From an uncultured delta proteobacterium (GTDB lineage Bacteria > Desulfobacterota > Desulfobaccia > Desulfobaccales > 0-14-0-80-60-11): a stretch of 64,000 bases of DNA. Location: contig CAWETI010000002.1 of the NCBI GenBank assembly GCA_963812015.1, positions 320,001-384,000 of the forward strand. The letters are read 5' to 3'. Position numbers and translations under genes: made by a program. The notes below the pieces were generated by a model. The model was given only the letters and a program-made list of their open reading frames with translations, had not been told where the DNA came from and made no database searches. Positions 1-38,918 of the stretch are shown in pieces. Each line of letters begins with the position of its first letter. Position 1 is the first letter of the stretch.

Positions 1-39
1 AGCCGGGTTGCCTGTGCTTCACTTGCAGGCAACCCGGCT
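1..39 (-). terminator. Intrinsic terminator hairpin, expression platform of the riboswitch
   Basis: 14-bp perfect inverted repeat AGCCGGGTTGCCTG (1-14) / CAGGCAACCCGGCT (26-39) overlapping the 3' strand of the aptamer; the U-tract would lie beyond the window edge. Confidence 0.7.
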
Positions 40-104
40 ATCTCCTGCTCAGAGATCCGTGGCTTTCCGTCCCCAGCTCACACTGGGTTTGGCTTTATCT
101 GTAG
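25..104 (-). ncRNA. c-di-GMP-I (GEMM-I) riboswitch aptamer
   Basis: Minus strand reads AGATAAAGCCAAACCCAG-TGTGAG-CTGGGGACGGAAAGCCACGGATCTC...GAGATAGCCGGGTTGCC, giving the GEMM motifs CAAACC, GNRA loop, GGGACGGAAAGCC and GCCGGGTTGCC. Confidence 0.85.
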
Positions 105-201
105 GATGTTGAGATCTTATCTGAGATTATCCGGGACCTGCCTCACAGAGGTTATTCCCGACAAGTTTCCTTTTTTGCCGTCGAGATGTCTAAGCTGAAC
201 G

Positions 202-232
202 ATAGTAGCATAAAATTCCATGAATTTGTCAA
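202..232 (-). promoter_or_regulatory. Putative sigma70 promoter for the riboswitch leader
   Basis: Minus strand TTGACA-N19-TACTAT with an extended TG; spacer contains the palindrome AAATTC-ATG-GAATTT; spacing is long. Confidence 0.4.
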
Positions 233-424
233 CCAACCAGCCAAAATATATTAATTTTTCAGCCTACCCTTAAGACCCCAGATACTTCACTGCTGTGAGC
301 GTGCAGACTTCGGGCTAGTAGCGCCCGGTAATGGTTGGCCAATGGGAAAAATCTTATGCGACATATGTTATTCCCTGAGAAGCCCCAGGAGGAGCAATTG
401 TGCGCCAGATGCTTGTGTCGCTCA

Positions 425-525
425 CTTGCCAGGACCAGCAATTATCAAATGCGTCGGGGAAAATTGCAGATATGATCCGGATATGGGAAGTTTTTGGAGC
501 TGTGATAAGTTTCGGACCATAGCAG
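425..525. repeat. Island repeat copy A (full length, ~100 bp)
   Basis: CTTGCCAG..GCAATTATCA..GATATGATCCGGATATGGGAAGTTTTTGG..GTGATAAGTTTCGGACCATAGCAG; aligns by eye with 5565-5664, 2704-2750, 8092-8150 and 8261-8306. Confidence 0.85.
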
Positions 526-609
526 CTATCGCGCGTTGTTTCTTCGCGCATTCGCAATTTGAAAGTATCTTGATGCTGCCTTATTCTTTGTCGCCTGACA
601 TTCCGTGAC

Positions 610-2049
610 TCAAGGGCCCTTGGCCCCGTCGGTCAGCCGTTGCAACCGCCTCTCCACGGTGGGGGGGACCGATGTGAAGTGGATCAGATAACGCCGGCTT
701 GACTCGTCAAGAGGATGGATCACCTTGGCGTACAACTCCGACTCTTCATCGCCAGCCTCGGCCTCCAACCGGAGCATTATGTTGGCATACGACTCAAGCG
801 GGCCGGTGACCTCGACTATTGCGCGCCGGGTGGATAGGGATAGCAAGGTTCCAGGATGCAATTTCTCGTCGAGATGCTTGTCGGTCAGACTCATGTAGGA
901 GAAGGGTATAGGTTCGGCCAGGGTTGTGAAGCTCGCCGCCTCTTCCTTGAGCAAAAGCCCCGGGTGGTCTTCGTGGCCCAACAACTCACGACAATTGAGG
1001 GCCTCCCGCATACCCTTGGCGTGGACTTTGATCTCGTCACCCAGGATGAGGCCCCGTCCAGCGGCGTTTATCAATGTTGGGGAGACGAGCACCTGCCCAC
1101 CGACGGTGAAGCTTTCGATACGCGCCGTCAGGTTGACCGCGCGCCCCACGACTCCGTACTTCGAGCGCTTTGTCGAGCCGATGTTGCCCACCACCACCTC
1201 TCCGGTATGCATGCCTATCCCCATTTCAATTTCGGGCCAACCCATTTGGAAGTTATGTTCGTTTACCCCGCGCATTGCCTTCTGCATCTCAAGGGCACAG
1301 AGGACGGCGCGCTGAGCCGCGTCCGGCATCACCATGGGGGCACCAAAAAGCACGAAGATGGCGTCCCCGATGATCTCATCAATAGTGCCGCTGGTTCGGT
1401 GAATAAGCTCGACCATGGTGGAGAGGTAATGGTTCAATAAGGCAACGACTGCAGTGGCCTCAAGCCGCTCAGCCAGGGCGGTGAACCCCCGCAGGTCGGA
1501 CATCAGTAAGGTAACCTCGCGCTTCTCTCCACCCAGCTTGAGCCCTTCGGGCATGTCGAGGAGCACCCCCACGATGTCGTCGCTCGTGTAACGGCCAAAG
1601 GTCTCCCGGATGAACTGATTGCGACGCTCGAGTTGCTGGTTCAGATTGACGAGTTGGGCGCGGGAGTCCTTCAGTTGCTGAGTCATGGTGTTGAAGGCAA
1701 TGGAGAAGTCCCCCATGAAGTCAACCCTTTGCTCCAGATCACCCCCGGCGATCTGTTGGGTCTTCCAGGTAAGGTGCTTGAGGTTCGATTGAAGGGCCTT
1801 GAAGGATTGGATAATGGCCATGCGGCCCGCCATGGGGCGAATGTCCAATTCTCCCTGGGCGACCTGCGCCATGGATTCGGTGAACAGGGCGAACTCCACC
1901 AGGAAGCGATTCACATAGGTAAGAAGCTGGCGGATCTCATTGTCCGGGAGGTCATCCGGTATAGGGATGGGTTGAGGGACTTTCCCGGTGCGAAGATGAT
2001 GGAACGTTGCGGTAATTTTATCAAGGAGATCCTCTTCAACCTCGATCAT
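610..2049 (-). CDS. HAMP-domain class III nucleotide cyclase, Cya2-like (predicted guanylyl cyclase), with possible PilZ-like C-terminus
   Basis: SDLRGFT, DEIIGDA, GMHTGEVVVGNIGS, KYGVVGRAVNLTARIES; HAMP-like HLTWKTQQIAGGDLEQRVDFMGDFSIAFN; no transmembrane segment. Confidence 0.85.
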   Translation of the reverse strand: MIEVEEDLLDKITATFHHLRTGKVPQPIPIPDDLPDNEIRQLLTYVNRFLVEFALFTESMAQVAQGELDIRPMAGRMAIIQSFKALQSNLKHLTWKTQQIAGGDLEQRVDFMGDFSIAFNTMTQQLKDSRAQLVNLNQQLERRNQFIRETFGRYTSDDIVGVLLDMPEGLKLGGEKREVTLLMSDLRGFTALAERLEATAVVALLNHYLSTMVELIHRTSGTIDEIIGDAIFVLFGAPMVMPDAAQRAVLCALEMQKAMRGVNEHNFQMGWPEIEMGIGMHTGEVVVGNIGSTKRSKYGVVGRAVNLTARIESFTVGGQVLVSPTLINAAGRGLILGDEIKVHAKGMREALNCRELLGHEDHPGLLLKEEAASFTTLAEPIPFSYMSLTDKHLDEKLHPGTLLSLSTRRAIVEVTGPLESYANIMLRLEAEAGDEESELYAKVIHPLDESSRRYLIHFTSVPPTVERRLQRLTDGAKGP

Positions 2050-2058
2050 CTTGGAACC

Positions 2059-2583
2059 TCATTTGGGGTCAACCGTGAAACGACAGACCCTCCCCCCGGT
2101 GCCCCAGCAGTCGACTTCCTTAACGTGGAAGTCCTTCCCCGAATAGGCGAGCAGGAGGCCCGCAATAAATCCTTCATCATAAGTGCAGATCTCCTCCGAG
2201 CACACTGGGATCCCCGAGCAATCAAGATCCTCTGCCACAGTTACTACGAAAGAGCCCTTTTCGTAATCGGCCGATTCGACGCGGAAGATCCCAATGCCGA
2301 GTTCCTTCATCGTGCGCTGGAGATCGGCAAACAGGCCATCCAAGTCCTTATGCTCGGTAAGGATGTTTTTGCAATACTCTTCACCGGCTTTCTTACCAGC
2401 CTCGAAAATAATCCGGTCGGTCTTCTCAACCCCAAATTCCCGGATGAGGAGGTCGCGCAGCGTGAACTGCATCAGGCGGTAAACAGCCACGTGCACCATG
2501 GGGCCGAGATTCGGCCGCCCTTTTTCGATATCGCCCAACATGCTCCATTCGAATTGGCTTTCTTCCCGTTCTTCTTTGAACAT
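2059..2583 (-). CDS. Stand-alone V4R (4-vinyl reductase) domain protein
   Basis: EDLDCSG..CTYDEGFIAG..EVDCWGTGGRVCRF V4R signature; RBS GGAGGAG; 9 bp upstream of the cyclase. Confidence 0.85.
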   Translation of the reverse strand: MFKEEREESQFEWSMLGDIEKGRPNLGPMVHVAVYRLMQFTLRDLLIREFGVEKTDRIIFEAGKKAGEEYCKNILTEHKDLDGLFADLQRTMKELGIGIFRVESADYEKGSFVVTVAEDLDCSGIPVCSEEICTYDEGFIAGLLLAYSGKDFHVKEVDCWGTGGRVCRFTVDPK

Positions 2584-2703
2584 GTGCTTACTCTCCTCCC
2601 TACGAGATCATAACTATTGATGCCTCGGCGTTTATGTTCTTCCTGGCCTGCCCATTACTATCCTCCCCAGGAATCCGAGACATTGCGGCTCCTCTAAATT
2701 TAA

Positions 2704-2750
2704 GGTTATGGGAGCTTTTTGGCTCTGTGATAAGTTTCGGATCATAGCAG
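2704..2750. repeat. Island repeat copy B (right half only)
   Basis: GGTTATGGGAGCTTTTTGGCTCTGTGATAAGTTTCGGATCATAGCAG, ending 11 bp from the CHAT gene stop. Confidence 0.8.
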
Positions 2751-2761
2751 AACTCTTCTAC

Positions 2762-5386
2762 TTACCCATCCCCGTGCAAGATTAGGCCCGACCAGAAATA
2801 TGGATGAGGTTCCTTGGCCCGCACTGCCTGGCGGGCGACCTTTAATGCCTCAATCTTGGGCTTCCCCTCCTTTAGGGCCTTATAAAAGGTCTCATAAAAC
2901 TTCATGGACTCATCCACCGGGATGTTCCACAGGGCCACCATGACGCTGCGGGCCCCGGCCTGTTGGAAGGCCCGGGCGAAATTCAGCACCCCTTCCCCCT
3001 GCATCACCTGGCCTACCCCGGTCATGCAGGCGGCCAGAGTCACCAGATCCGCATCCAGTTTCAACTGCAACACCTTGCTGAAAGTCAGGAACCCGTCATC
3101 CGGTGGTTTATTTTCTACTTGAGTCAGGACCAGCGTGGGCTCTCGCACCCCGGCAATCTTATCCGCTAAAAACCCGTGGGTGCCGAAGAAGAGATAGCGA
3201 TATTGGCCCAGGCTAGTCTGCCGCACTTTTGTTTCCGTGGCGAAGACATCCAGGAGCACCTGGGGAGGCTGGGGCTTTTCCTGGAAGAGGGCGGCCAGTT
3301 CCAGCACGGTCTGGCGAGTCTCCGGCAGCGGCGGAAACTCCAGCCGCCCCCACCCCTTGTCGGTGGCCGCCATAGTCATAGCCTTTTCCGGCCCCGCACC
3401 CCGGAGTTCCCCCGCCTTCTCCTTGCCTGCCTTATAGGCCAGATAGCGGCTGTTATCCTTGGTGTAGATGCAGTCCCCCAGGGCAAAGAGGGGCTGACCG
3501 GCTTTGGAAGAACCCAAAACCCGGTTCAAGACTAGAATAGCAGCGGACTGAAAATAGGTGACAGGCCAGCGGTCTCCCACCAGGGTGCTTTTGTCCCAGC
3601 CGGCGCCGGCCTGCACCACCAGAGCCTCAAAGGGGAAGGCTCCCAGGGCGCCATCGGGAACGATGATCAGTTTGGTGCCAGGATTCACCCCGACCAGTGC
3701 CGGGGCCAGGATCTCCTGATACAAGGAGGCCGCCTCGCTCACTGAAAAACGGGATAAATCCTCGCGCCGCAAGACGCTTTTCCGAAAAGGCGCCAGCATG
3801 GCCCCCAGGCGCTTTTCCAGGGCCTCCTGCCCCAAAGCCAGCCGGAACACCTGGGTCTTGCCCCCGGGTTCCACCCGGAAAAGATAACTGTCCTTATCAC
3901 CCAGGGCGTACTCCAGCAGCACCTCCCCCGGCTTCAGGGGCAGCTCCTGGGCCTTATACGGTTGGGGATAGGCTAGCGCCGCATACCGGGGTTCCCGGTG
4001 GCGCAGTTCCGTAACCAAGCTATCCATCTCCCGTTGCAAGGCTTCCCTATGGAGTTGGAAATCCTGGGCCGGCTGATCCTTCCGATCCCCTCTTCCCCCC
4101 TTTGACATTATCCGTTCTGCCCTTTGGGCTTCCAGGGTCTGCAAGCGCTCCTGGAGATTTTTCTCCTTAGCCGCCAACTCCGGGGGCAATTGGGGGGCCA
4201 CCCGCGCCGCCCCGGCGGCAAGGGCCTCCAGCAAAGAACGGGCCTTGATTGCTTCAGCAAAATAAAAGGCCGCAGCAGAGAGATCCGGTCCATAAGCTTG
4301 CAAGCCCGCAGGAGCAGGATCGCCTTTCTGGGCCATCTCCGCCAGTAAACCTGTCATACCCTGATAGGCGCGAAAATAGCCACCCAGAACCCCCGACTCG
4401 AAGAAGCTGGTGCGTTCCCCTGAGGTGAGGGCCCGCAACCCTTCGATATTCTTGATGGCCTGCATGAAAGCGGCAGACGCCTCTCCCCGGCTCCCCAACC
4501 CCTGGAGCGCCAACCCTTTTTGCGTATAATAAAGCGCCTGGACTTGGGGGGGGGTCCATGCCAAGGGGACGAGATGAGAGGTTAAGAGGTTCAGGGCTGA
4601 TGCATACTGCCTGGTGGCCAGATAAAGTTCCACCATACCGCGGTGTCCCTCTGGGGGTTGAGCCCGGAGGAAAGTGGATTCGGCCTGGTTATAATCTTTC
4701 TTGACCAGATAGATAAATCCCAGAGTCGTGAGACTGCGTGCGGTCTGTCGGTTTTCTAGTCCTAATGCCTTTTCATTGATCTGCGCGGCGCGTCGGGCCA
4801 AGGGCAGAGCCTGGTCATAGGAACCCTCCTGGCAATAAAGGATCGCTAGATTGTACAAGGCGGACGCAGTCTGCCGGTCTTCCGGCCCCAACGCCTTTTC
4901 GCTGATCCGTAAACCTTGCTGGATCATGAGCAACGCCTTTTCCCGGGCTCCCATCTGTCCATAAAGGTACCCCAGGATTATCTGGCTCTGGGCGGTTTGG
5001 GAGTGTTCGGGCCCCAGGACCTTCTCATTGAGCTGGAAGGCTTTATGGGCCAGGGGCAGAGCCTGATCGAAGAAACCGAGAATAGAGTATAATCTTGCCA
5101 AATGTGCCATACACTTGGCGGTGAGCGGATCTTCTGGTCCCAAGGCCCTCTCGCTGAGACTCAGGGCCTGCTTGTAAGTATTCAGGGCGGTAATGCCAAG
5201 ACCAGCATCCACATCAGCCCAGGCCTTTTTCAGTAATTCCTTGACTTCGGCCGCCTCCGGCTTTTGGCCGGCTACTGGCATCTCCATACCTAAAGTTGAC
5301 TGGGGACTCTTCTTGGCGGCATAGCCGTATGTTCCAAATAAGCCAAAGAGCAAGAGGCAGAAGCAAACAGAGATGAGTCTGACCAT
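2762..5386 (-). CDS. TPR-repeat CHAT (caspase-like) protease with signal peptide
   Basis: Hydrophobic N-terminus; TPRs of the EKALGPEH/D type; CHAT motifs IIVPDGAL, FFGTHG, VTLAACMTG, ALWNIP, HPYFWSG. Confidence 0.9.
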   Translation of the reverse strand: MVRLISVCFCLLLFGLFGTYGYAAKKSPQSTLGMEMPVAGQKPEAAEVKELLKKAWADVDAGLGITALNTYKQALSLSERALGPEDPLTAKCMAHLARLYSILGFFDQALPLAHKAFQLNEKVLGPEHSQTAQSQIILGYLYGQMGAREKALLMIQQGLRISEKALGPEDRQTASALYNLAILYCQEGSYDQALPLARRAAQINEKALGLENRQTARSLTTLGFIYLVKKDYNQAESTFLRAQPPEGHRGMVELYLATRQYASALNLLTSHLVPLAWTPPQVQALYYTQKGLALQGLGSRGEASAAFMQAIKNIEGLRALTSGERTSFFESGVLGGYFRAYQGMTGLLAEMAQKGDPAPAGLQAYGPDLSAAAFYFAEAIKARSLLEALAAGAARVAPQLPPELAAKEKNLQERLQTLEAQRAERIMSKGGRGDRKDQPAQDFQLHREALQREMDSLVTELRHREPRYAALAYPQPYKAQELPLKPGEVLLEYALGDKDSYLFRVEPGGKTQVFRLALGQEALEKRLGAMLAPFRKSVLRREDLSRFSVSEAASLYQEILAPALVGVNPGTKLIIVPDGALGAFPFEALVVQAGAGWDKSTLVGDRWPVTYFQSAAILVLNRVLGSSKAGQPLFALGDCIYTKDNSRYLAYKAGKEKAGELRGAGPEKAMTMAATDKGWGRLEFPPLPETRQTVLELAALFQEKPQPPQVLLDVFATETKVRQTSLGQYRYLFFGTHGFLADKIAGVREPTLVLTQVENKPPDDGFLTFSKVLQLKLDADLVTLAACMTGVGQVMQGEGVLNFARAFQQAGARSVMVALWNIPVDESMKFYETFYKALKEGKPKIEALKVARQAVRAKEPHPYFWSGLILHGDG

Positions 5387-5564
5387 ATTATCCTCCCCTG
5401 ACCCTGCTAAGGGAAAATCCGAGGCTTAGCTAATGGCGTGCCGTGGCTTGGAGGCGGAAGCAAAGATATATAGGTCCATTCACCAACTTCTGAAATTCAC
5501 ATTGCCACGAGGAGGTAGGATTGTCAAGAAATGGACCTTTGGTCAAGGTTCCTTGGCTCACCAT

Positions 5565-5664
5565 CTTGCCAGCCCCTGCAGTTATCATCGGGCCGGTAGA
5601 AATTATACATATGGTCTGGATATGGAAGGTTTTTGGCTTCGTGATAATTTTTGGATCATAGCAG
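5565..5664. repeat. Island repeat copy C (full length)
   Basis: CTTGCCAG..GCAGTTATCA..CATATGGTCTGGATATGGAAGGTTTTTGG..GTGATAATTTTTGGATCATAGCAG. Confidence 0.85.
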
Positions 5665-5754
5665 TAACCGCCACTATTCACTCCGCTTAGCCGATCGAGC
5701 ACTTGATCAAAAATGCACTCAGGTTTTCAACGAACGGATTTGGTATGTATCTAG

Positions 5755-6912
5755 TTATAGAAAAAGTTCCTGTATCACTTGGAGGCCACCAATCAAGGCC
5801 AGCAGACCGATAAGATTTGGAGGAGACATCCCACCCAGAGCGCCAAGCACCAACACCGCGGCAGCACCTCCGAAGCGGAAGACCAGGCGAGTTTTCTGAA
5901 TCTTTCTCCGGCTGACGTCAATAATGAGTTGGATACAGCCGATGGATAGTAAAACCAAGGCTGCTGCTCCGCAACTGAGCCAGCGCTCTCCCGCCGGCAA
6001 GGCCAGGTCCTGAGGGCTGGCTACCGCATACTGTACGCCCACGGCGCCGGCCGCCAGACCGATGACCAGGGGGAGATGGGCGTAAAGCCAGCCCTGGTAA
6101 AGCCAGATGCGCCCCTTGGCCCGGGCGACGCGTATGGCGGCGCCGTCAATATTGTCAAAATAGGCCCACCAGAAGGTGAAGGCGAGGCTCAACCCCAACG
6201 CCGCGGTAAGTCCGGACTGGATACTCCAGGCGTGTTTCGTTAAACCCATCACAACCCCCGCGATTGCCTCTCCCAGCACGAAGAGGATAAAGGAGGCGAA
6301 GCGTTCAGGCAGGTGGGCGGCGTGAGGTGCCAATCGAGAGTGGAGTTTTTCCCCGGCCGTCAGAGGGGTGGCGAAATCAATCAGGAGACCGAATCCCCAC
6401 AGGTAAAAACGGAATGGCGTCGGGACCCAGGCCGACACCAACCAGATGGTCGCAGCCGCGCCGAAGCCCAGACCATAGCGTTTCGTCAAGGAGCGGGCGA
6501 CAGGCACCCAGACATGGGCGCCCAGGTATTCTCCCACCAGGATGAAGCGCACCGCGGCATACGAGAGGGCGAAGCCGGCTGAAGCGTGGCCCAAACCGGC
6601 ATGAACATTCACCGCCATGGCTGCGACCGCAAACATCTGGGCGATGATGAACAGGCGTTGTCCCAGATCGTCGGTGTCAAACCGGTCGGCATAAAAGGAC
6701 TGGCCTACCCAGGCCCACCAGACCGGGACGCACAAAAAGGCGAAACCGAGGACTCCGGGGACGGAAAGGCCCTGACTGAGCCCAAAAGTCAATTGGGCCA
6801 CCACCGAGGCAAAGAGCAGGTCATAAAAAAGCTCTAGCCAGGTGGCGTGCCGTTCTTCTTCCGCCCCCTCACCGATGCGCAGCCGCGGCGGTTTCCACAC
6901 TATTTTTTTCAT
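5755..6912 (-). CDS. Low temperature requirement protein A (LtrA) family membrane protein
   Basis: RHATWLELFYDL, HLPERF..F..FVLGE, WWAYFD, WLYAHLPL; multiple TM helices. Confidence 0.9.
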   Translation of the reverse strand: MKKIVWKPPRLRIGEGAEEERHATWLELFYDLLFASVVAQLTFGLSQGLSVPGVLGFAFLCVPVWWAWVGQSFYADRFDTDDLGQRLFIIAQMFAVAAMAVNVHAGLGHASAGFALSYAAVRFILVGEYLGAHVWVPVARSLTKRYGLGFGAAATIWLVSAWVPTPFRFYLWGFGLLIDFATPLTAGEKLHSRLAPHAAHLPERFASFILFVLGEAIAGVVMGLTKHAWSIQSGLTAALGLSLAFTFWWAYFDNIDGAAIRVARAKGRIWLYQGWLYAHLPLVIGLAAGAVGVQYAVASPQDLALPAGERWLSCGAAALVLLSIGCIQLIIDVSRRKIQKTRLVFRFGGAAAVLVLGALGGMSPPNLIGLLALIGGLQVIQELFL

Positions 6913-6947
6913 ATCGGATCAGATCGTTGGCCCAAGCCGCTCTTGGC

Positions 6948-7862
6948 TCATCTCTTGGCGTGTTTGATGAAAATGCCCTCCTGATATTCCTTGAACGCCT
7001 GTTGCAATTCTTCCTGTGTATTCATAACGATAGGACCATACCACGCTACGGGTTCGCCAATGGGCTGGCCCGAGATCAGGAGAAACCGCACCGGGCTGGC
7101 AGGAGCAAAGACTGCCACCTCATCGCCCTCCCCGTAATGGATAATGGTCCGATTGCCGCAGACACACCGGCGGTCAAAATCAAAATAGTTAGACCCTATG
7201 ACTTCATGCGCATAGGCATCCCGCTCGGGGTCGAAATAGCCTTCCCCCTCTATGACGTAGGCAAAGGCCGTATGGCCCCGCCGGATTGGATGATGGAACT
7301 CGGCTCCAGCCGGCACCAAGACATCGAGGTATTCCGGGTCCGTGACAATATCCTTGACCGGTCCCCGAGTTCCGTTAACTTGCCCGCAAATGATCTTCAC
7401 CTTGACGCCCTGAGTTAAAGAGACCTCGGGAATCTGGGCGGCCTTCACGTCCCGGTAGCGGGGTTCCATCATCTTGCGGGAGGCCGGAAGATTGGCCCAG
7501 AGCTGGAAGCCGTACATGCGACCTCGGGTATCCCCCTTGGGCATCTCCTGGTGGATGATTCCGCTGCCTGCCGTCATCCACTGCACGTCTCCCGGGGTGA
7601 TTACCCCCTTGTTGCCCATGCTGTCGCCATGTTCCACTTCTCCAGCCAGGATGTAGGTAATCGTTTCAATCCCCCGGTGTGGATGCCAAGGAAAACCCTT
7701 TAGATAGTCGGTGGGATCATCCCCGCGAAAATCGTCCAGGAGGAGAAAAGGGTCGAATTGGGGCACTTGGTCGTACCCGAAGGCCCGCCGGAGGCGGACC
7801 CCAGCGCCTTCCATTGTGGCCCTGCTTTGCCACACCTTGTTAATTTTTCTTATCTTGGCCAT
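6948..7862 (-). CDS. Pirin family protein
   Basis: DPFLLLD, GFPWHPHRGIETITY, QWMTAGSGIIHQE, GPIVMNT. Confidence 0.95.
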   Translation of the reverse strand: MAKIRKINKVWQSRATMEGAGVRLRRAFGYDQVPQFDPFLLLDDFRGDDPTDYLKGFPWHPHRGIETITYILAGEVEHGDSMGNKGVITPGDVQWMTAGSGIIHQEMPKGDTRGRMYGFQLWANLPASRKMMEPRYRDVKAAQIPEVSLTQGVKVKIICGQVNGTRGPVKDIVTDPEYLDVLVPAGAEFHHPIRRGHTAFAYVIEGEGYFDPERDAYAHEVIGSNYFDFDRRCVCGNRTIIHYGEGDEVAVFAPASPVRFLLISGQPIGEPVAWYGPIVMNTQEELQQAFKEYQEGIFIKHAKR

Positions 7863-8091
7863 GGATATCCCTCTGGTTGATACCGCTTGACATGCTTGCG
7901 GAGAAAGTTGTGCATCAGGTCGGTTATCTAACCGCCATCATTCTGCTCGAGCGGTCGTAGGTGATTAGTCTGCGAGATTACCCACCTCAATTGACACCCG
8001 GTTCCTCCAAACAATCGATCTGTCTTTAAGTTAAGATGGCCAAGGACATGGGTCAACTCACCCATTATTTAGGCGAAGACACGGTCGATAT

Positions 8092-8150
8092 CTTGCCAGA
8101 TCATGCAGTTATCATCGGACGGGCAGAATTTATAGATATGATCCGCATAT
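8092..8150. repeat. Island repeat copy D1 (left half)
   Basis: CTTGCCAGATCATGCAGTTATCATCGG..GATATGATCCGCATAT; similarity stops at the centre of the repeat. Confidence 0.8.
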
Positions 8151-8260
8151 CATATGGGGGCAACAGTGGGGAGGAAGATTTCAGATGTCGGTGATGGGGA
8201 AACGCCAGTTTACCGGCGGGAATGGCAGGAATCCTTCAGGCCAAAAAGGCTTGATATCCT

Positions 8261-8306
8261 CTGGATATGTAAAGTTTTTAGAGCCGTGATAAGTGTCGGA
8301 TCATAG
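8261..8306. repeat. Island repeat copy D2 (right half)
   Basis: CTGGATATGTAAAGTTTTTAGAGCCGTGATAAGTGTCGGATCATAG. Confidence 0.8.
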
Positions 8307-8517
8307 ATGCTATGAAAGGTTTCTTGCGCTGGCCTCCTGATATAAAAGGTGAAGTTTCGCCAGAAAAGACAAAGAGAGGAGGCTGACCATGGACCACAAG
8401 CAGGGAAAGCAGGTCAGAGAACAGAGCGCCCAGGGGCCAGTTTTGTACGTGGCCTTCGAACTGGCAAAGCATGGAAGATGGCAAGGGCACAGAGGCGGGG
8501 GAAAGTTTTCTCGGTGA
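8307..8517 (+). pseudogene. IS110-family element remnant (left end plus frameshifted, truncated transposase 5' end)
   Basis: RBS AGGAGG then ATG 8389: MDHKQGKQVREQSAQGPVLYVAFEL, continuing in another frame as KAWKMA (IS110 LYVAFELS..WK-type start); GCCTCCT/AGGAGGC hairpin covers the RBS. Confidence 0.6.
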
Positions 8518-8533
8518 TGCAGAGGCGGTCCAC

Positions 8534-8806
8534 CTATTCCATTTCAAATGTACGAGTTTCCCCCATATCTTGGTCATAGACTTCGACATCAACAGATGAG
8601 CCATTCCTCTGGATTGAATCCACATCTCCATATCGATATTCGCCCTTATCATAATCATAAAATTCAATTTCTTGCCCGGGTCGGACCAGGTTCCCTTTCT
8701 CAATCTCAACGGAAGTGCCATTTTCATAGTCGTATCCATCCCATGCGAGGACTGGGACAGAACACACAAGCCAGAGAAGAGCGACAGAAATAGCAATTCT
8801 TATCAT
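8534..8806 (-). CDS. Small exported protein, DUF5334-like
   Basis: Signal peptide then WDGYDYENGTSVEIEKGNLVRPG..FYDY; RBS AGGAGG. Confidence 0.75.
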   Translation of the reverse strand: MIRIAISVALLWLVCSVPVLAWDGYDYENGTSVEIEKGNLVRPGQEIEFYDYDKGEYRYGDVDSIQRNGSSVDVEVYDQDMGETRTFEME

Positions 8807-8887
8807 CGTTTGACCCTCCTTTCTTTTTTCCTTGGATTGATCGAGGTAGCCGTTGCAAGAGGTTTGGCCGGGTTGCCCTAAGCCTCC

Positions 8888-9694
8888 CTAATAATAAACG
8901 GGTGACCTTTTTCCAAACAACTTGGCTATCTCTTTGATAATTTTTCTCCACCCAAGACTTCTCATTTCAGCAAAGGATAATTCACTAATAAGATGGCCCT
9001 CATACGTGAACACTTCTTCTGGTGTAACTTCTCTATCATGAAATAGATTTAAATACTCTCGCCTAACAAATATTGCATTACAATGTACATTTGCTAATAA
9101 GATGTACTGTTTACTAACTGCAAGCTCTGTCATGGATGAGATGCTTGTTCCTGTATAACCAGTAATACCCCACATGGATGAGATGCTTGTTCCGCTATTA
9201 TCAAAAACAATTGATGAACCTGGCTTATTCATACGTTTTATTCCAGGTTTATCACGTATGTTAATCTCGATTATGACAACTTTTGGCTGATAATTATCTA
9301 AAGATTTCCATATATGATAATCATCACCGTCAACATCAATTGACAACAAATCGAATTGTTTTGGAATAGGCGTTAAACCTAATATTTTATCGAGTCTATT
9401 TTCCCCTTCGGGTCTTACAAAAGCATTGACACAAAAAGTGTCGTAGCCTTTCATGTTTTCACGCAAAAGATTATATTTCAACGGATCTGCTTCAATCATA
9501 ACACCATGGTAACCTAAGTGTGAAATAAAGTAATATGTATTACTTTCAGATTTGCCATCCCATGCTCCAAATTCTACGCACCAACCCGTCTTATCAGGTA
9601 TTTTTGATAGAACAAAAGCCAGTAGTCCATCTTCACCTTGTTTAGAAAAAAATGATTTGCGGTGGCTGAGTAATTTTTCAACTGTATCTTTCAT
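8888..9694 (-). CDS. FkbM-like SAM-dependent methyltransferase-fold protein (AT-rich)
   Basis: SKQGEDG, VEFGAWDG..SNT, IEAD, DLLSIDVDGDDYHIW, PKVVIIE, NAIFV. Confidence 0.75.
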   Translation of the reverse strand: MKDTVEKLLSHRKSFFSKQGEDGLLAFVLSKIPDKTGWCVEFGAWDGKSESNTYYFISHLGYHGVMIEADPLKYNLLRENMKGYDTFCVNAFVRPEGENRLDKILGLTPIPKQFDLLSIDVDGDDYHIWKSLDNYQPKVVIIEINIRDKPGIKRMNKPGSSIVFDNSGTSISSMWGITGYTGTSISSMTELAVSKQYILLANVHCNAIFVRREYLNLFHDREVTPEEVFTYEGHLISELSFAEMRSLGWRKIIKEIAKLFGKRSPVYY

Positions 9695-9755
9695 GAGGCG
9701 TCACGTTACGCATGGAAACCGCAGGCAGGCGGGGTTGAGCTGATCCTTGGCAGTT

Positions 9756-9792
9756 AAAACACAAAAGGCCCCATCTTGCGGACAAGGGCCTT
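9756..9792 (-). terminator. Putative terminator after hxsA
   Basis: AAGGCCC...GGGCCTT stem followed by a T-rich tract on the minus strand. Confidence 0.5.
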
Positions 9793-9835
9793 CGGCTGTT
9801 AATACATACACCAAGCGAGCGTTCTGGTCTTTTTT

Positions 9836-10069
9836 CTAATATCCCGAGCGGTGAGAATAATGGCTCGAATGGCTCTCATGGCTCGAATGGCTTTCGTGTT
9901 GGCCGATTACGGTGTCTATGCTGCTACCAATGGACTTCCCGTGCTCCAGATAAAGGGGTGATTTGGCGCTAATGTCCGGTACCGCTGCCGATACAGTCGC
10001 TGCCGATATGCCGAAAAGAGCCACAAGACCTGCAAGAACGCCCATCACCTTGCTGGATAGGCCTTTCAT
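9836..10069 (-). CDS. hxsA: His-Xaa-Ser repeat precursor peptide (77 aa)
   Basis: ATG 10069 after GGAGGGGG; C-terminus HES-HSS-HES-HSS-HYS-HRS-GY; hydrophobic N-terminus; adjacent to two radical SAM genes. Confidence 0.9.
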   Translation of the reverse strand: MKGLSSKVMGVLAGLVALFGISAATVSAAVPDISAKSPLYLEHGKSIGSSIDTVIGQHESHSSHESHSSHYSHRSGY

Positions 10070-10262
10070 AAAACCCCCTCCTTCGCCTCTAAATAGCCAA
10101 TTTAGCAATAATTTTGGTCTGACATTACACTCATAAGATATATGCTACTCTTAAAAATTCAATATGCAAGCAATTTATTTCTTTATTAAATGGCAATCAA
10201 GGTAAGTCCGCAGTGCTGAAGCAAATCGGTTGACAGACTCGCCTCCACTCCCTCCTTCAATG

Positions 10263-11387
10263 CTATTGCGGGCAAATATGGGGGCTTTGATGCGATCCGG
10301 AGGTTGTGAAAATCCCACAGCACTTCGATTTAACTGAGCATCCTTCACATACTGGAAGGTAATCATTTTTCCATCCTGAAATTGACTGCCTTGCAAAACC
10401 CCATGCCTTCGATTCAATCAGGCATAGCGGGAGGTTATAAATTGAGACGCTCATGTCCGCACGGCTCAACACCCTAATTGCCCGTGAAAGCTCATGACGG
10501 TAGTCATGCGGGTCAATCCAAACAGTCTCGTAATGATCGCAAGCAAGTCCGGTTATCTCCATTCCCATGAAGGCGCAGTGTTTGATGAAGGGAAAGTTCC
10601 TTTGAATGAAGGTTGCAATGGACTCAAGGCGGTGAGCGTTGATACGGCTCACAACTACCCGGATTTCAATCTTCTCCCGAAAGCGAGCGAGGTTCTGGAG
10701 GCCCATTGCTGTCTTATAGAAGCTGCCTTTAACACCTACAATCCGGTCATGAACCTCATCCACATCACTATGCATAGAAACACAGGTAAGAAAATCTTTG
10801 GGTCTTAATGATACAAAACGCTTTGTGAACTCGAATTTGGCGAATGACTTGCCGTTTGTGAGCAGCATAACGGTTGAGTCCGGATGTCTTTTGTTGATTA
10901 TCCCCAGGATATCGAAAAAATCTTCCTTCAATAGGGTAGGTTCTCCGCCAGTCAGGCAGATAGCCTGAGTATTCTCAATTTTGACAAGATTAAGGATTTG
11001 TTTACTTGTCTCCGTTAAAGTTCTATCGTGTGCTTTCGGCGGTTGTGGACACATAAGGCAATGGCAATCACACATCTCCGTCAGAAGGAGCGAATTCGTT
11101 GGGGACTTTTTCTCACAAACAACCGATATGACGCCGTCCTTGCCGATACGAACGCAATCTCCCTCTTGCAGTTTTTCTAAAACTTCGCCAGAAACTTTAG
11201 TTTGTGGTAACAAGCTCTTATTTTTACTAGAGTCTTTCACTATCAGTCCCGCAAAGCCCCTTGACAGTAACGAAGTCTCTTCAGTTACAAGAACGCTGTT
11301 ACCTCGCGATAGAGCCAGCGGGTTGCGCGTCACCAAGCCAAGAATCGGGGTCTCTATGTTCTCTGCTATCCCTTTAAATTGTCTCAT
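10263..11387 (-). CDS. hxsC: His-Xaa-Ser system radical SAM maturase HxsC
   Basis: LLLTEMCDCHCLMCPQPP (CxxxCxxC), TGGEPTL, SIYNLPLC, RQSISGWKN, C-terminal CxxC..CCG. Confidence 0.9.
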   Translation of the reverse strand: MRQFKGIAENIETPILGLVTRNPLALSRGNSVLVTEETSLLSRGFAGLIVKDSSKNKSLLPQTKVSGEVLEKLQEGDCVRIGKDGVISVVCEKKSPTNSLLLTEMCDCHCLMCPQPPKAHDRTLTETSKQILNLVKIENTQAICLTGGEPTLLKEDFFDILGIINKRHPDSTVMLLTNGKSFAKFEFTKRFVSLRPKDFLTCVSMHSDVDEVHDRIVGVKGSFYKTAMGLQNLARFREKIEIRVVVSRINAHRLESIATFIQRNFPFIKHCAFMGMEITGLACDHYETVWIDPHDYRHELSRAIRVLSRADMSVSIYNLPLCLIESKAWGFARQSISGWKNDYLPVCEGCSVKSKCCGIFTTSGSHQSPHICPQ

Positions 11388-12847
11388 GCTTCTTTACCGC
11401 GCACTTCTTTTAAACTCCGACCAGAAATCCACGACCAGAATACATCCATTTCATCAGGGTCGTTGCGCTTGAGTTTTTTGAATAGCATATCGAAGATTAG
11501 CTTGTTCTTCTTGCAGAAATCGTTACCCGGACGTTTCCCCATAAGGTCGCCTGTCTCAAGATAATTGCGTACAGGGTAGGAACCGCAGTAGGTGCGATAA
11601 ACGCAAGAGCTGCAATAAGGCATGATCTCGACACATGACTTGCTGACAATCTCCCGGAGCAGTTCCCCTCCAAAAATGCTTTCATAGGAATCTTTGAAAA
11701 CATTTCCAAGGCAGAAACGGCGGTCGCCCATCCTGGCGAGCATGCGCGCCTCATCTGCGGGGAAAACATCTCCGTTGTAGTCATAAATCGCGCCTGAAAT
11801 GCCTGCACCTGATGGAGATTGGAGATCGACGAAACCAGTGGAAAAAGGTGTAAGGATACGAGTAAGCAGAAGGTTCGTGTAGAACTCTACAAACCTTGGG
11901 CCGTTAAGATTGAGTTGGACGATAAGATTAAGGGCTTTTTCGAAATTCTCGACAAAATGCTCTACGGGATACCCCAGATGCTCCGCGTTCTTGGCGGCTA
12001 AACCATAGGGATTAAGCGACCGGATAAATATCCCATTGAAGCCAAGCTGGACATACTCTGCAACAACCTCTTCCAAGTGGTCGATGTTATCTATAGTGGT
12101 TGTCATGAGGGCATTCACCTGACCACGAAGGAGGATGTCGAAGGCTTTGTAGAGGTTTTTGATAAACGCATCGTAGGTACCGCCGCCACTTCTCAGTATC
12201 CGGTTCTTGTCGTGAAGGTTCCGGGGGCCGTCAAGAGAGGTAGATATGTGTATGCCATGTTCTTTAAAGAACATTAGCTGTTGCGTGTCAACCATGACGA
12301 GATTGGTGCAAACGACGAAAACAAGATGCTTATGGTATTTCTGGTTAACCTTCTTCGCATAAAGGACAGTCTCTTTTAGCGTCTCCCAGTTAAGGGTAGG
12401 CTCACCGCCTTGGAACTCTATCTTTATCGAGGGGGAAGGGGATTTGAAAATATAGTCAACAACACGGCGAGCCACCTCAGGTGACATGTCAAAGCCCTTT
12501 GCGTCGTCCACTTCAGCGGTCACCTGGCAGTATGAACAAGCGTTGCAGCACTTCAGGGTGATGACCATCATGTGGAGAGAGGTGAAATTTGAGAGAAATC
12601 TTTTCCGAGTCCGGTACTTCGCTGAAACCATCTCCAGCGTTTCCGGCAAGTGTTCCGTATTGAGGAAATGCCTGCTCTTTAAGTCGTAGCAGGAGAGGGA
12701 ATCGGGGGTCAGGTCGCTCTGTATGAACTTATGGAAATCGTCCTTATTGAGGAAGATGTATTCGCCACTTTCGTTGACGAGCAAGTAGTCATTGCTGTTA
12801 AACCGAGAGAACTGGAATGGCAGTATGTTCTGCCGTTGGTCGTTCAC
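11384..12847 (-). CDS. hxsB: His-Xaa-Ser system radical SAM maturase HxsB
   Basis: LPFQF N-terminus, TSLHMMVITLKCCNACSYCQV, KIEFQGGEP, VDLQSPSG, DEARML, SPASM-like CSSC..YCG..FC. Confidence 0.9.
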   Translation of the reverse strand: MNDQRQNILPFQFSRFNSNDYLLVNESGEYIFLNKDDFHKFIQSDLTPDSLSCYDLKSRHFLNTEHLPETLEMVSAKYRTRKRFLSNFTSLHMMVITLKCCNACSYCQVTAEVDDAKGFDMSPEVARRVVDYIFKSPSPSIKIEFQGGEPTLNWETLKETVLYAKKVNQKYHKHLVFVVCTNLVMVDTQQLMFFKEHGIHISTSLDGPRNLHDKNRILRSGGGTYDAFIKNLYKAFDILLRGQVNALMTTTIDNIDHLEEVVAEYVQLGFNGIFIRSLNPYGLAAKNAEHLGYPVEHFVENFEKALNLIVQLNLNGPRFVEFYTNLLLTRILTPFSTGFVDLQSPSGAGISGAIYDYNGDVFPADEARMLARMGDRRFCLGNVFKDSYESIFGGELLREIVSKSCVEIMPYCSSCVYRTYCGSYPVRNYLETGDLMGKRPGNDFCKKNKLIFDMLFKKLKRNDPDEMDVFWSWISGRSLKEVRGKEA

Positions 12848-13188
12848 AGAGATTTTACTTCCTTGTGGAGGTCAAGAGGTGAAAAGGCATGGGCGACAAT
12901 CAGATCGCGTATCCTACCATTTATCTTGTCAAGCTGATGTCTGACCTGGTGGTCTATGAGAGCGTTGGCAAAATCTTTTAGATCTTCACTGACATCCCTG
13001 GCTTTGTCTTTCGCTTCGAAGATAACCGTCACCGAGTTGTCAACATTAGGGGTTATTAGGATATGGTAGCTGTCTGTAAATTGATAAGTAGCCGCGTGAA
13101 TGGCTTCGAGGTTGTAAATGCTGGTGTTAACGGTTATGTTGCCCCGTCCAGAACCGGAATCACAGATTAAATCTGATATTACTTGCAT
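12844..13188 (-). CDS. hxsD: His-Xaa-Ser system protein HxsD
   Basis: IYNLEAIHAATYQFTD...FANALIDHQVR...IRDLIVAHAF; overlaps the hxsB start; start chosen at ATG 13188 after a purine-rich RBS. Confidence 0.85.
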   Translation of the reverse strand: MQVISDLICDSGSGRGNITVNTSIYNLEAIHAATYQFTDSYHILITPNVDNSVTVIFEAKDKARDVSEDLKDFANALIDHQVRHQLDKINGRIRDLIVAHAFSPLDLHKEVKSL

Positions 13189-13265
13189 GCGTTGCCCCCC
13201 TTCCGTGAATAGCATCCACCCTTCCATCCCTGTTGCGCAGCGGGTTTAGCTTTGTCTGAGATTCC

Positions 13266-13295
13266 AGCATAAGCCCACTTTTTCACAAATGTCAA
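13266..13295 (-). promoter_or_regulatory. sigma70 promoter for hxsDBC
   Basis: Minus strand TTGACA-N18-TATGCT. Confidence 0.6.
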
Positions 13296-13433
13296 AATTA
13301 TAATTTACATTTTTCATTAACTTTCATCTGGAAGTCCCCCTGCCCCCTTTGCTCCACTTCCTTGCAGGGACAGGCGGTTACGGTTAGAGAATAAGGTTAA
13401 CAAGGGTGAAGTAATTTTCCTCAGGATATTTCC

Positions 13434-13462
13434 TTGACAAGTATGACCAATGGTCATATATT
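13434..13462 (+). promoter_or_regulatory. sigma70 promoter with palindromic operator, upstream of the HTH-integrase pair
   Basis: TTGACA(13434)-N17-TATATT(13457); palindrome TATGACCA-A-TGGTCATA at 13442-13458. Confidence 0.75.
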
Positions 13463-13468
13463 AAGATT

Positions 13469-13669
13469 ATGACAGGGCAGGATTTAAAAAACTGGAGAAA
13501 AAAGTGGAGAATCACTCAGATCGAATTAGCCCGGTTGCTTGGAACCTATCAGGAAACCATCAGCCGATGGGAGGGGGGTAAGAGGGGAATTCCATCCCAT
13601 TTATTCCTAGCATTAGAGGCCCTGGAACACCGGATAATGAAAGGAGGCAAAGATGGCCTTACTGGTTGA
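13469..13669 (+). CDS. XRE-family helix-turn-helix protein
   Basis: LKNWRKKWRITQIELARLLGTYQETISRWEGG; overlaps the integrase start. Confidence 0.85.
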   Translation: MTGQDLKNWRKKWRITQIELARLLGTYQETISRWEGGKRGIPSHLFLALEALEHRIMKGGKDGLTG

Positions 13670-14741
13670 ATGTCCAGAGTGCAAGAAGCGGAATAGCCAG
13701 AGAGCGAAAAACTGCAAATGCGGTTTTGCTTTGGCGAAATTTTCAGGCCGGGTCTGGTGGATTGAGTATTATGACCATGATAAGCGGCTGAGACGGGAAC
13801 GGATCGGCCCCAACAAGGCGGCGGCAGAGCAACGGCTCAGGGAAATTTTGAGCGCCAGAACAGAGGGGCGGTACATCAAGAAAAGCCCTGATAGCCTCAC
13901 CCTCTTTAAGGAATTGGCCCATTGGTATCTTGACCTTCCCGAAGTGAAGGCGAAGCGGAGCCATGTGAGGGACCGTTACAGCGTGGAAAAGCTGTTACCC
14001 TTTTTTGGGGACCGGCTCTTAAAGGACATCACCCCAGCCATGGTGGAGGCTTACCGGCAAAAGCGTTTAGTGGAACCATCTTACCGAAAGCACTTGACCT
14101 TGCCTGCCACGGTTAACCGGGAAGTTACCTGCCTAAAGGTGATTTTCAATAAAGCAGTCAAGAATGGCAAGGCGGAAAAAAATCCGGTTCAGGGGTTGAA
14201 GCTGCTCAAAGAAAACAATGAACGGGACCGGATATTAAGCCCCGAAGAATATACTCTGCTGATAGTTCATTGCCCGGAGCATCTTAAGCCCATTGTGAAG
14301 ATGGCGTATTATACCGGCATGAGACAGGGAGAAATCCTCAATCTCACTTGGGACCAGGTGGATTTAAGAGAGGGTTTTGTCCGGCTGAATCCGGAGCACA
14401 CCAAGACCAACGATGGGCGACTTGTGCCTCTTACCGGGGAACTGGTGGATATGTTCAAGGCCATGCCAAGAGGCTTGCCGGGAGTGAAGGTGTTTACCTA
14501 CCAGGGAAAGTCTGTGTCCTGCATTAAGAAGAGCTTTGTTACGGCTTGCAAACGGGCAGGGATTGAGAGCTTTTGCTTCCATGATCTGAGGCACACGGCC
14601 ATTAATAACTGGCGACAAGCCGGGCACGACTATTTTAGAATCATGGCGGCCACTGGCCACAAGACTATGGAAGTGTTCAAGCGGTATAACACGGTCAGCC
14701 GCGATGAACTGAAAGCCCTGGTGAATGGAAAAACGGAATGA
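13653..14741 (+). CDS. Tyrosine recombinase/integrase with N-terminal zinc ribbon
   Basis: CPEC..CKC N-terminus; catalytic TGMRQGE, HTKT, FHDLRH, TGHKT, KRYN; convergent on the tRNA 3' end. Confidence 0.92.
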   Translation: MALLVECPECKKRNSQRAKNCKCGFALAKFSGRVWWIEYYDHDKRLRRERIGPNKAAAEQRLREILSARTEGRYIKKSPDSLTLFKELAHWYLDLPEVKAKRSHVRDRYSVEKLLPFFGDRLLKDITPAMVEAYRQKRLVEPSYRKHLTLPATVNREVTCLKVIFNKAVKNGKAEKNPVQGLKLLKENNERDRILSPEEYTLLIVHCPEHLKPIVKMAYYTGMRQGEILNLTWDQVDLREGFVRLNPEHTKTNDGRLVPLTGELVDMFKAMPRGLPGVKVFTYQGKSVSCIKKSFVTACKRAGIESFCFHDLRHTAINNWRQAGHDYFRIMAATGHKTMEVFKRYNTVSRDELKALVNGKTE

Positions 14742-14801
14742 ATATTCACCTATATATTCACCAAGACAAAAAATGGGTTAACCAATAATGGCTAACCCAT
14801 T
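14742..14801. repeat. att-proximal repeats (candidate integrase arm sites and hairpin)
   Basis: Direct repeat ATATTCACC at 14742 and 14754; inverted repeat AATGGGTTA (14772) / TAACCCATT (14793). Confidence 0.55.
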
Positions 14802-14809
14802 GAAATCTT

Positions 14810-14886
14810 TGGTGGGCGATGGGCGACTCGAACGCCCGGCCTTTGGTTCCGGAGACCAACGCTCTATCCACCTGAGCTAATCGCCC
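14810..14886 (-). tRNA. tRNA-Arg(CCG)
   Basis: GGGCGATTAGCTCAGGTGGATAGAGCG-TTGGT-CTCCGGA-ACCAA-AGGCCGGGCGTTCGAGTCGCCCATCGCCCACCA; CCA encoded. Confidence 0.96.
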
Positions 14887-14895
14887 ACGTAAAAA

Positions 14896-14923
14896 ATCAT
14901 ATCAGATTCAGGCGCGCTGTCAA
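14896..14923 (-). promoter_or_regulatory. tRNA promoter
   Basis: Minus strand TTGACA-N16-TATGAT just upstream of the tRNA. Confidence 0.65.
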
Positions 14924-14974
14924 GGTGGATCAGCCCCGCACCGGGTTGGCCGGCATCACCTTCCCGTGGCCTGG

Positions 14975-16042
14975 TCAATTCCACAGCTTGATGGCGACAA
15001 AGGGTCCCTGGTTCACCGGGGGGGTCTCGCCCTGGGCCACCCACAAGACCCGGTCGCCGGGGGAAAAAACGGTGCAGACCGCGGTGCCGGCATTGGCGAT
15101 CTCAGGGTCGGCGAGAATTTTTTGTAAGTCCATGGGACCCAGTCGGCGGTCTGAGGCCAACTCCTGGAGCCGCCGGTCCCGGTCCTGGCTATAGGCCTCG
15201 GTGAAATGGTAAGAGGAGAGCACGGAATAGGGCGGGGGCGGCGGAAAACGCCCCTTCAGTCCCTGCATGGCCGGGCTTTGATAGTGATTGGTGACGGTGA
15301 GCAATCCCTGGTGCGGCTGGCGCCGGGCCCCGTGTCGGGCCGAGAGCTCCACCACCAGTGCCTCCCGGGGCCCGCACAGCAGGAGATTATTGCCGATGGT
15401 GCCGGCGTCCGAAAGGACGCGGTCGGCCACCGCGGTCACCGTGTTACCTTCCTCCAGGCCCCGGCGGAAGCGCAGGGCCGCCGGAGTCCCCTTGAGGGTG
15501 CGGTCCCGGCTCACGGTGGAGAGCTGAGCCAGGGCCACGCCGGCGGAGTTGATGCCGGTGCATACCCCCACGTATCCCGGCCAGGCCAGGGAGGCCAGGG
15601 GCTGACCCCGGTGAGGCGAAAGGAGAAACAGGGTTTGGCAGCGGGACAGGTAATCGGTGAATACCGGATAATCCAGGTTGCGCCCCATCAAATAAGCCCC
15701 CTGGTCGGTGTGTCGGTCTCCCACCGCCAGGGCCGAGCACCGGGGGCTGTTATTGGCCAGGTCATCCATGACATTAAGGAGCAGGATGCTTCCCAGGCTG
15801 ACTTCGGCCCCGGCGGCGATGGCGGCCATCTCCTGCTGGAGGTGGGGAGGGATGTAAGGCCAGAACCCCCGGGCCAACCACTTCAGGAGGCCATATAGGG
15901 GCAGAGCCCCGGCATACAGGCTGATCCGGGCCAGGTAGGCCAGAAGCACCCGGCGCAGCAGGCGGATGTCGGCGGCCAGGGTTTGCCCGTGGCGGCGCCC
16001 CAATTCTTGCGGCGAGCCCCAGATTTCCAGCGTGCGTAACAC
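14975..16042 (-). CDS. C45 family autoproteolytic acyltransferase/peptidase (Ntn hydrolase)
   Basis: CSALAV nucleophile, GRNLDY, GINSAG, TNHY. Confidence 0.85.
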   Translation of the reverse strand: MLRTLEIWGSPQELGRRHGQTLAADIRLLRRVLLAYLARISLYAGALPLYGLLKWLARGFWPYIPPHLQQEMAAIAAGAEVSLGSILLLNVMDDLANNSPRCSALAVGDRHTDQGAYLMGRNLDYPVFTDYLSRCQTLFLLSPHRGQPLASLAWPGYVGVCTGINSAGVALAQLSTVSRDRTLKGTPAALRFRRGLEEGNTVTAVADRVLSDAGTIGNNLLLCGPREALVVELSARHGARRQPHQGLLTVTNHYQSPAMQGLKGRFPPPPPYSVLSSYHFTEAYSQDRDRRLQELASDRRLGPMDLQKILADPEIANAGTAVCTVFSPGDRVLWVAQGETPPVNQGPFVAIKLWN

Positions 16043-27960: not shown

Positions 27961-28124
27961 GATTTTTTGGGAGAGGGGGCCAGGGACAAAAGCCCCTGCC
28001 CCCTCTTCCAAACCCTCTCCCCCAACCCCATATATGTTTTTTACATAAGCATTAGGAGTAATGTAGGGCGGGCATTGCCCGCCATTATCCTGCTGCTGAC
28101 TGCTCACTATTAAAACAGGTAGAC

Positions 28125-38905: not shown

Positions 38906-38918
38906 TAACTATGACAAT

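Follow-up and report, generated by a model that had tools for sequence, protein, structure and literature searches.

In the genome of an uncultured delta proteobacterium (3.96 Mb, here G000; C2 and C3 denote contigs), we analysed a window of 64,000 nucleotides, C2:320001-384000, in which five related repeat segments separate unrelated gene modules. These segments are best explained as gene-less or half copies of an element of about 1.05 kb, whose Xer-like tyrosine recombinase probably cuts at the outer ends of the units, so moving them, and probably also exchanges DNA at a central core. We put the probability of this explanation at roughly 0.72.

The full element and its recombinase

A ~1.05-kb element with a single gene, for a Xer-like tyrosine recombinase, has as its two ends the left arm of the repeat, beginning CTTGCCA, and the right arm, ending ATAGCAG. 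At C2:302473-303519, 17 kb to the left of the first segment in the window, a tyrosine recombinase gene lies between a left and a right arm. This copy of the gene is the only one in the genome and is broken by one in-frame stop; the repeat copies of G000 would therefore need an enzyme supplied in trans, or are relics. Relatives had the same layout in differing flanks, in which the left arm precedes the start codon by about 100 bp and the gene is followed by a hairpin, the core and the right arm. Complete units at 20 loci were 1,032-1,081 bp long, and some units carried extra DNA ahead of the right end.

The linkage of arms and gene was assessed at 112 distinct full-length recombinase loci, reaching down to 47% protein identity. 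The left motif was present at a fixed upstream distance at 54 of the 103 loci with enough flanking sequence, compared with 0/103 on the other strand and 2/315 distal windows. An exact TAGCAG was found downstream at 40/106 loci, the controls giving 2/106 (other strand) and 3/317 (distal windows).

The recombinase is a protein of 278 amino acids with SAM-like and catalytic domains only. Pfam revealed no arm-binding domain, and the 1-kb unit contains no excisionase or conjugation gene. The residues R-K-HxxR-H-Y were invariant in all 10 aligned recombinases. The best profile match was XerA, at 126 bits against a cut-off of 220, and the protein fell below the cut-offs for XerA, XerC, XerD and IntI; the integron integrase profile TIGR02249 gave 49-58 bits against a cut-off of 265, in a match ending at about residue 190 of 278. 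The nearest solved structure was the XerC-like entry 4a8e (E 8e-15). The family comprises 4,046 protein clusters at E<=1e-30, among 4,478 candidates. Recombinase matches were patchily distributed, in 22 of 301 genomes of the phylum and 20 of 200 genera, with up to 5 per genome. The closest relatives were Desulfobaccales or Deltaproteobacteria records, and viral contigs yielded only 6 loci, at 42-54% identity. The existing annotation of the protein reads only 'integrase/recombinase XerD'.

In most copies the recombinase gene is out of frame, at a run of A residues about 20 codons in. The run was short at 18/20 loci with the start codon in frame, and a run of at least seven A residues was present at 54/59 loci with the start shifted by +1 and at 21/22 with the start shifted by –1; 11 of the 112 loci fell in none of these three classes. 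At 22 close loci, the ratio of nonsynonymous to synonymous substitution (dN/dS) was 0.075 in the main frame and 0.24 in the 17 codons before the A-run, and 0.75 and 2.8 for the N-terminal part read in the shifted frames. By these ratios the gene is under purifying selection on both sides of the run. Frame shifts in both directions suggest that the full protein is made through transcriptional slippage, which would keep activity low; a shift direction that is not conserved at poly-A in transposases is described as an indication of such slippage (PMC3711429).

Genome-wide copies, outer ends and inner core

Iterated profiles of the two arms gave 72 left-arm and 39 right-arm matches in the genome, and none in the reversed genome used as a control. 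At E<0.05, with two overlapping spurious matches removed, there were 79 units: 14 short forms (~100 bp), 12 long forms (~217 bp), 42 lone left arms and 11 lone right arms, four of the lone left arms being short forms with a divergent right arm. The arms of short units overlap by a fixed 14-15 bases. The long form was present in 20 of 40 relatives, and in 15 of 17 within the genus. All units but one (78/79) lie outside open reading frames of at least 100 amino acids, by our own calling, and 68% have a neighbour less than 5 kb away (random mean 18%, maximum 39%). The G+C content of unit flanks was 53% versus 59%. Neighbouring units within 15 kb shared one orientation in 51 of 55 cases in G000, as did 34/35 neighbours in 14 regions of relatives, these regions having been picked for containing the repeat. 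Sites lie just beyond gene 3′ ends, and where a gene followed a short or long form within 600 bp it was antisense in 16 of 19 cases. Units within 30 kb of an integrase numbered 37/79 against 17.6 at random, which fits a location in islands and nothing more specific. No Rfam family matched the repeat, GATA/TATC boxes recur in it at 9- and 19-base spacings, and the four strands of the two short copies in the window folded no better than shuffled sequences (z –0.65 to +0.41).

Copies with closely similar arms were found in unrelated flanks. Two loci of one genome (L045 and L046) have an identical left arm and one mismatch across the right end as displayed, and their flanks are unrelated; the pairs L041/L047 and L059/L061 break at the identical left point, and the short forms at C2:786290 and C2:1103077 are near-identical within unrelated flanks. 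In a pooled comparison of distinct arms (92 left, 67 right), 36 pairs were at least 90% alike, and not one of them shared an outer flank. Conversely, only one of 16 pairs sharing an outer flank had an arm identity above the 95th percentile of background, and in one pair the flank was 100% identical and the arms 47%. No exact 4-bp target duplication was found at any of 37 elements (1.5 expected by shuffling). Near-identical copies in unrelated flanks, together with the absence of target duplication, indicate that the outer ends are mobile boundaries, located at CTTGCCA and ATAGCAG. These are the best-supported boundaries of the repeat, and the units would thus be transposon ends and their miniature derivatives.

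The four bases beyond each end are biased to NTAN and usually travel with the flank. Joined ends are predicted to read TAGCA-G-NTAN-CT-TGCCA, that is, inverted 5-bp boxes around 7 bp. Excision and integration would take place at this site and, as with IntDOT or the Tn916 integrase, mismatches would be tolerated in the 7-bp overlap; IntDOT is reported to recombine overlap regions with as few as one or two matched bases (PMC2817482). A crossover inside the arms, at a site of 10-7-10 form, was considered and rejected: near-identical copies retain these spacers at either end, and the genome contained no empty site of this form. A candidate empty allele at C3:888172 was also discarded, another repeated sequence being present at the junction.

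The inner core reads GATAT-N7-ATAT, with a 7-base spacer in 81 of 90 cores and a 6-base spacer in none. Behind 76 left-arm cores we found the right arm in 14 cases, a 103-bp middle in 17, the recombinase leader in 15 and other DNA in 30. Left and right halves mix at this point. A DUF116 gene lies between core and right arm in two relatives (G008 and G015, 91% identical) behind differing left parts; the core is also the starting point, again with differing left parts before it, of a 3.8-kb block and of a further right-hand sequence, and a 4.1-kb block duplicated in G000 ends at core position –1. A Mantel test of left against right arms gave r –0.01 (n 26), a weak test that included truncated arms. 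The core is likely a second exchange point, which can accommodate a spacer, a DUF116 gene or the recombinase gene; recombination of core by core would remove or replace the interior and so produce the 100-bp form and lone arms.

Several individual loci illustrate what the repeat can contain. At L266:7743-8765 a DUF116 gene replaces the recombinase gene between the arms, and its homologue in G007 lacks the left boundary. The 3.8-kb element, at C3:996792-1000613 and C3:453858-457666 (94% identical), starts with a shortened left arm and has genes for a 206-amino-acid integrase consisting of the catalytic domain only, and a 510-amino-acid protein without a Pfam match that presumably resembles a terminase. 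At L285 (C3:740020-741870) a group II intron with a reverse-transcriptase reading frame lies inside the left-arm core; beyond it the repeat interior resumes and ends in ATAGCAG, giving a form of ~135 bp.

The window and its cargo

The repeat segments occupy the right part of an island of about 23 kb, which ends on the right at tRNA-Arg(ccg); on the left, 45 bp of the tRNA end are duplicated at C2:311495. Positions in the following list are those of the window; copies are profile matches unless another basis is given, and cargo and integrase are assigned by Pfam.

425-525, + strand: copy A, short gene-less form (left arm, core, right arm; 101 bp)
610-2583, – strand: cargo block 1, V4R protein and HAMP/adenylate-guanylate cyclase, beyond the element ends
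2704-2750, + strand: copy B, lone right arm
2762-5386, – strand: cargo block 2, TPR-CHAT protein
5565-5664, + strand: copy C, short gene-less form (100 bp)
5755-7862, – strand: cargo block 3, pirin and LtrA
8092-8306, + strand: copy D, single long gene-less form (12 genome copies, mean column identity 76%)
8092-8150, 8151-8252 and 8253-8306, + strand: parts of copy D, namely left arm and core 1, conserved middle, and core 2 and right arm
8307-8482, + strand: IS110-family remnant inserted in the right end of copy D after CATAG (sequence match)
13653-14741, + strand: island integrase, given for context; not the enzyme linked to the repeat
14810-14886, – strand: tRNA-Arg(ccg), island right end (context)

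A first-pass annotation, made from the letters of the window, had described five related segments on one strand, and the profiles recovered all of them at E 1e-11 to 1e-18, the next best match having E 0.16. Its imperfect 12-1-12 dyad lies at 499-523, where 7 of 12 positions match, its names for the cargo modules agree with Pfam, and the 49 kb of core genome in the window is free of copies, as it had noted. The last two segments, which it had taken for separate half copies around a 110-bp spacer, are instead one 217-bp unit whose middle is conserved in 12/12 copies, and whose right end is truncated at 8306 by the IS110 remnant. Its association of the repeat with islands stands insofar as units lie in low-G+C, intergenic island DNA, but the repeat is not local to this island, given 79 units genome-wide.

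The IS110 remnant at 8307-8482 is 83% identical to the start of an IS110 element lying at the equivalent right-arm point at C3:449833. This IS110-family element targets the position after ATAG, and two of the three copies found in the genome (8307-8482, C3:449833 and C3:892186) interrupt the repeat at the identical base of its right end. A c-di-GMP-I-GGC riboswitch lies directly beyond copy A (24-102, – strand). Further into the island, a low-G+C FkbM-like methyltransferase (8888-9694) adjoins a His-Xaa-Ser radical SAM system (9836-13227, – strand; HxsD, HxsB, HxsC and a 90-amino-acid HxsA-like precursor). A putative short helix-turn-helix-like reading at 13440-13650, directly before the island integrase, resembles open reading frames preceding other island integrases of the genome. 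The core genome carries a separate dispersed family of G/C-run direct and inverted repeats (27959-28034, 38764-39064, 42639-42890 and 60936-61039).

Flanking positions were reused, the same flank being entered by different forms. At the position of copy B, beside TPR-CHAT, relatives carry a short, long or recombinase-bearing form, and in G008 a DUF116-carrying form occupies the position of copy C beside ltrA. In another relative, G016, TPR-CHAT and V4R/cyclase stand in reversed order compared with the window, each led by a right arm, that of the V4R/cyclase block being the right end of a truncated recombinase-bearing element. An 827-bp unit spans one left end to the next left end at two places. 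Ends of duplicated segments lay within 120 bp of a core in 28 of 1,396 cases (~9 expected), several of them being insertion-sequence ends. Contigs of four runs, mapped to window positions 1-15000, gave joints between copies whose short side was only 25-46 bases; loose contig ends match other genomic copies, and the joints are explained by paralogous copies and give no evidence of excision.

Cargo lies beyond the element ends and would thus move only through recombination between neighbouring copies. Copies would accumulate in an island, and like junctions of co-oriented copies would recombine, so that the intervening DNA is excised and re-inserted, which would explain both the shared orientation and the swapped gene blocks. 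This is the least certain step of the mechanism, to which we give slightly less than even odds, and shuffling of cargo by the repeat is plausible. Shared or duplicated blocks mostly have a site at one end only, which argues against gain of cargo through the sites. A broader and more tentative interpretation is that of a one-gene system acting as both transposon and cassette shuffler, in which the slippage-throttled recombinase would spread 100-bp sites by their outer ends across islands and then, acting on like junctions and on the inner core, would excise, reorder and capture gene blocks.

Alternative explanations and known systems

Several observations weigh against the proposed element and its mobility. 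The exact right motif stood at a fixed distance in only 6 of 27 close relatives, with variants and passengers among the remainder. Right arms are short, and 90% identity between them may therefore reflect convergence on a consensus. Left arms (~38, once divergent short forms are moved out) outnumber the 11 lone right arms, an excess that simple excision and integration does not predict. Near-identical left arms had discordant interiors in only two of nine pairs, one of them distantly related; an apparent core exchange at C3:741929 proved to be a group II intron insertion and was rejected; and the inner core is described here for the near clade, distant members retaining the termini only. A clean empty target was not found, so that the cut positions are inferred. 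No right-arm/left-arm circle junction was detected with exact patterns in 115 loci, 18 genomes of the genus or a metagenome collection, all searched as assemblies and contigs, which drop rare forms. As to cargo, a site lay within 1.5 kb of one V4R/cyclase homologue clearly and another weakly among nine loci in relatives (two cut by contig ends), and of 2/7 TPR-CHAT and 1/4 ltrA loci.

The first-pass annotation had proposed a recombination site through which the island gains modules, with half copies as products of crossover at the centre. Linkage to a recombinase and the variable flanking content, including the swap in G016, bear out the first part as far as recombination is concerned, but not the gain of cargo; halves do mix at the core, but the outer ends, which are the better-supported boundaries, had been missed. 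A rival explanation is a dedicated cassette system other than an integron, in which cassettes would join at the 100-bp unit, crossover would be confined to the core, the cargo blocks would be the cassettes and the recombinase gene would be one cassette among others. Co-orientation, exchanged interiors, the location of sites just past gene 3′ ends with antisense downstream genes, the swapped block order and the 827-bp unit would all follow from such a system. We nevertheless consider it unlikely, since arms part from the cargo-side flank (only 1 of 16 pairs stay together), movement takes in the whole element from one outer end to the other, and most cargo homologues lack a site, as most shared blocks have one at a single end.

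It is less probable still that the copies are passive relics, inserted independently into AT-rich intergenic hot spots, with mosaics that stem from IS110 and intron insertions and from slippage or conversion at short shared motifs, and with cargo that never moved through the sites. The broken state of the sole local recombinase, the entry of different forms into one flank, the insertion of IS110 and a group II intron at the repeat and the lack of circles are all in keeping with relics. This explanation leaves unaccounted for the co-orientation of 51/55 and 34/35 neighbours, passenger genes that begin exactly at the core, and the occurrence of a 100%-identical flank next to two right arms that differ greatly. 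It seems very improbable that the labour is divided, with the element's enzyme acting at the outer ends and host XerC/D, as in pdif modules, at the inner core. A dif-like site at C3:1721301 has TGATAA, a motif recurring in the repeat, in its first arm; this site is a pattern match only, however, some 275 kb from the skew maximum. The repeat has no XerD-type arm, and its core spacer is mostly 7 bp and never 6, the length described for pdif (PMC13141974).

Comparison with established systems also disposed of several candidates. The likeness to serine-resolvase res sites suggested by the first-pass annotation is not supported: the gene nested between the arms is a small tyrosine recombinase, and the two PF00239 matches in the genome are each more than 5 kb from the nearest copy. 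Nor is the island integrase, its other suggestion, the linked enzyme, which is a separate protein encoded between the arms; integrases beside repeat clusters are unlike one another in length and sequence. An IS91/ISCR element was rejected, there being no HUH (Y2) gene between the arms and a single PF04986 match in the genome, within ~1.1 kb of 1/79 units. An integron was dismissed for want of an attC-type fold and of a score reaching the IntI cut-off, a pdif module for want of the order XerC arm, 6 bp, XerD arm, and a chromosomal XerA/C/D on the sub-threshold score and patchy occurrence (22/301 genomes). Gene-less copies share both ends with an autonomous element in unrelated flanks, as do miniature inverted-repeat transposable elements (MITEs) of DDE insertion sequences; a DDE insertion sequence was rejected on the absence of target duplication (0/37).

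A literature full-text search, covering result listings and abstract openings, returned no description of this element; ISfinder, subscription journals, the datasets of PMC8138268 and the supplements of PMC3711429 were outside its scope. At 1 kb and run by one simple tyrosine recombinase, the element would rank among the smallest recombinase-driven transposons, and a major group of sediment bacteria commonly carries it. It connects site-specific recombination with the biology of insertion sequences (miniatures, passengers and slippage control), and provides a way to form oriented gene arrays besides integrons or pdif modules. If it does shuffle cassettes, integron-like arrays without attC hairpins would exist across sulfate-reducing Desulfobacterota. 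The mechanism is open to direct test, given natural in-frame versions and 100-bp substrates, and an integrase that is compact and tolerates mismatched overlaps could serve as a tool.

Insertion sequences are known to have MITE and cargo-carrying derivatives. The element resembles them in size, in having one enzyme between two ends, in its many gene-less copies and in its passengers; it differs in its Xer-like tyrosine recombinase, the absence of target duplication and ends that are only loosely inverted. Frame-shifted transposase genes, as described in PMC3711429, share the frameshift at an A-run in both directions. Integrons also place co-oriented sites between unrelated genes near their 3′ ends and use a tyrosine recombinase, but the sites of the element do not fold, its recombinase is far below the IntI cut-off and its gene is nested in the site. 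The pdif modules of Acinetobacter are described as short sites between accessory modules that shuffle, each with a XerC arm, 6 bp and a XerD arm and served by host enzymes (PMC13141974); the repeat, in contrast, has directly oriented units of 100-217 bp, with a core spacer of 7 bp and a dedicated enzyme. Among the simple tyrosine recombinase subgroups described by Smyshlyaev et al. 2021 (PMC8138268), core-binding and catalytic domains alone are likewise found, and the best profile for the element's enzyme is archaeal XerA, although it is below all Xer cut-offs. IntDes, the subgroup named there for Deltaproteobacteria, is a different protein, described as having an arm-binding domain and altered catalytic residues and as limited to Desulfovibrio (PMC8138268). 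With CTnDOT and its integrase IntDOT, as described in PMC2817482, the element shares a tyrosine recombinase, no target duplication, unlike junction bases and degenerate targets.

Like Tn916, a tyrosine-recombinase transposon with mismatched overlap regions, no target duplication and degenerate targets, the element has between its ends a recombinase that, judged by its residues, is catalytically intact. It lacks the arm-binding domain, excisionase and conjugation genes of Tn916 and CTnDOT, and differs from both in its ~1-kb length, single gene, miniature derivatives and second, internal exchange core. By analogy, it resembles a transposon of the Tn916/CTnDOT type cut to insertion-sequence size, together with its miniature derivatives.

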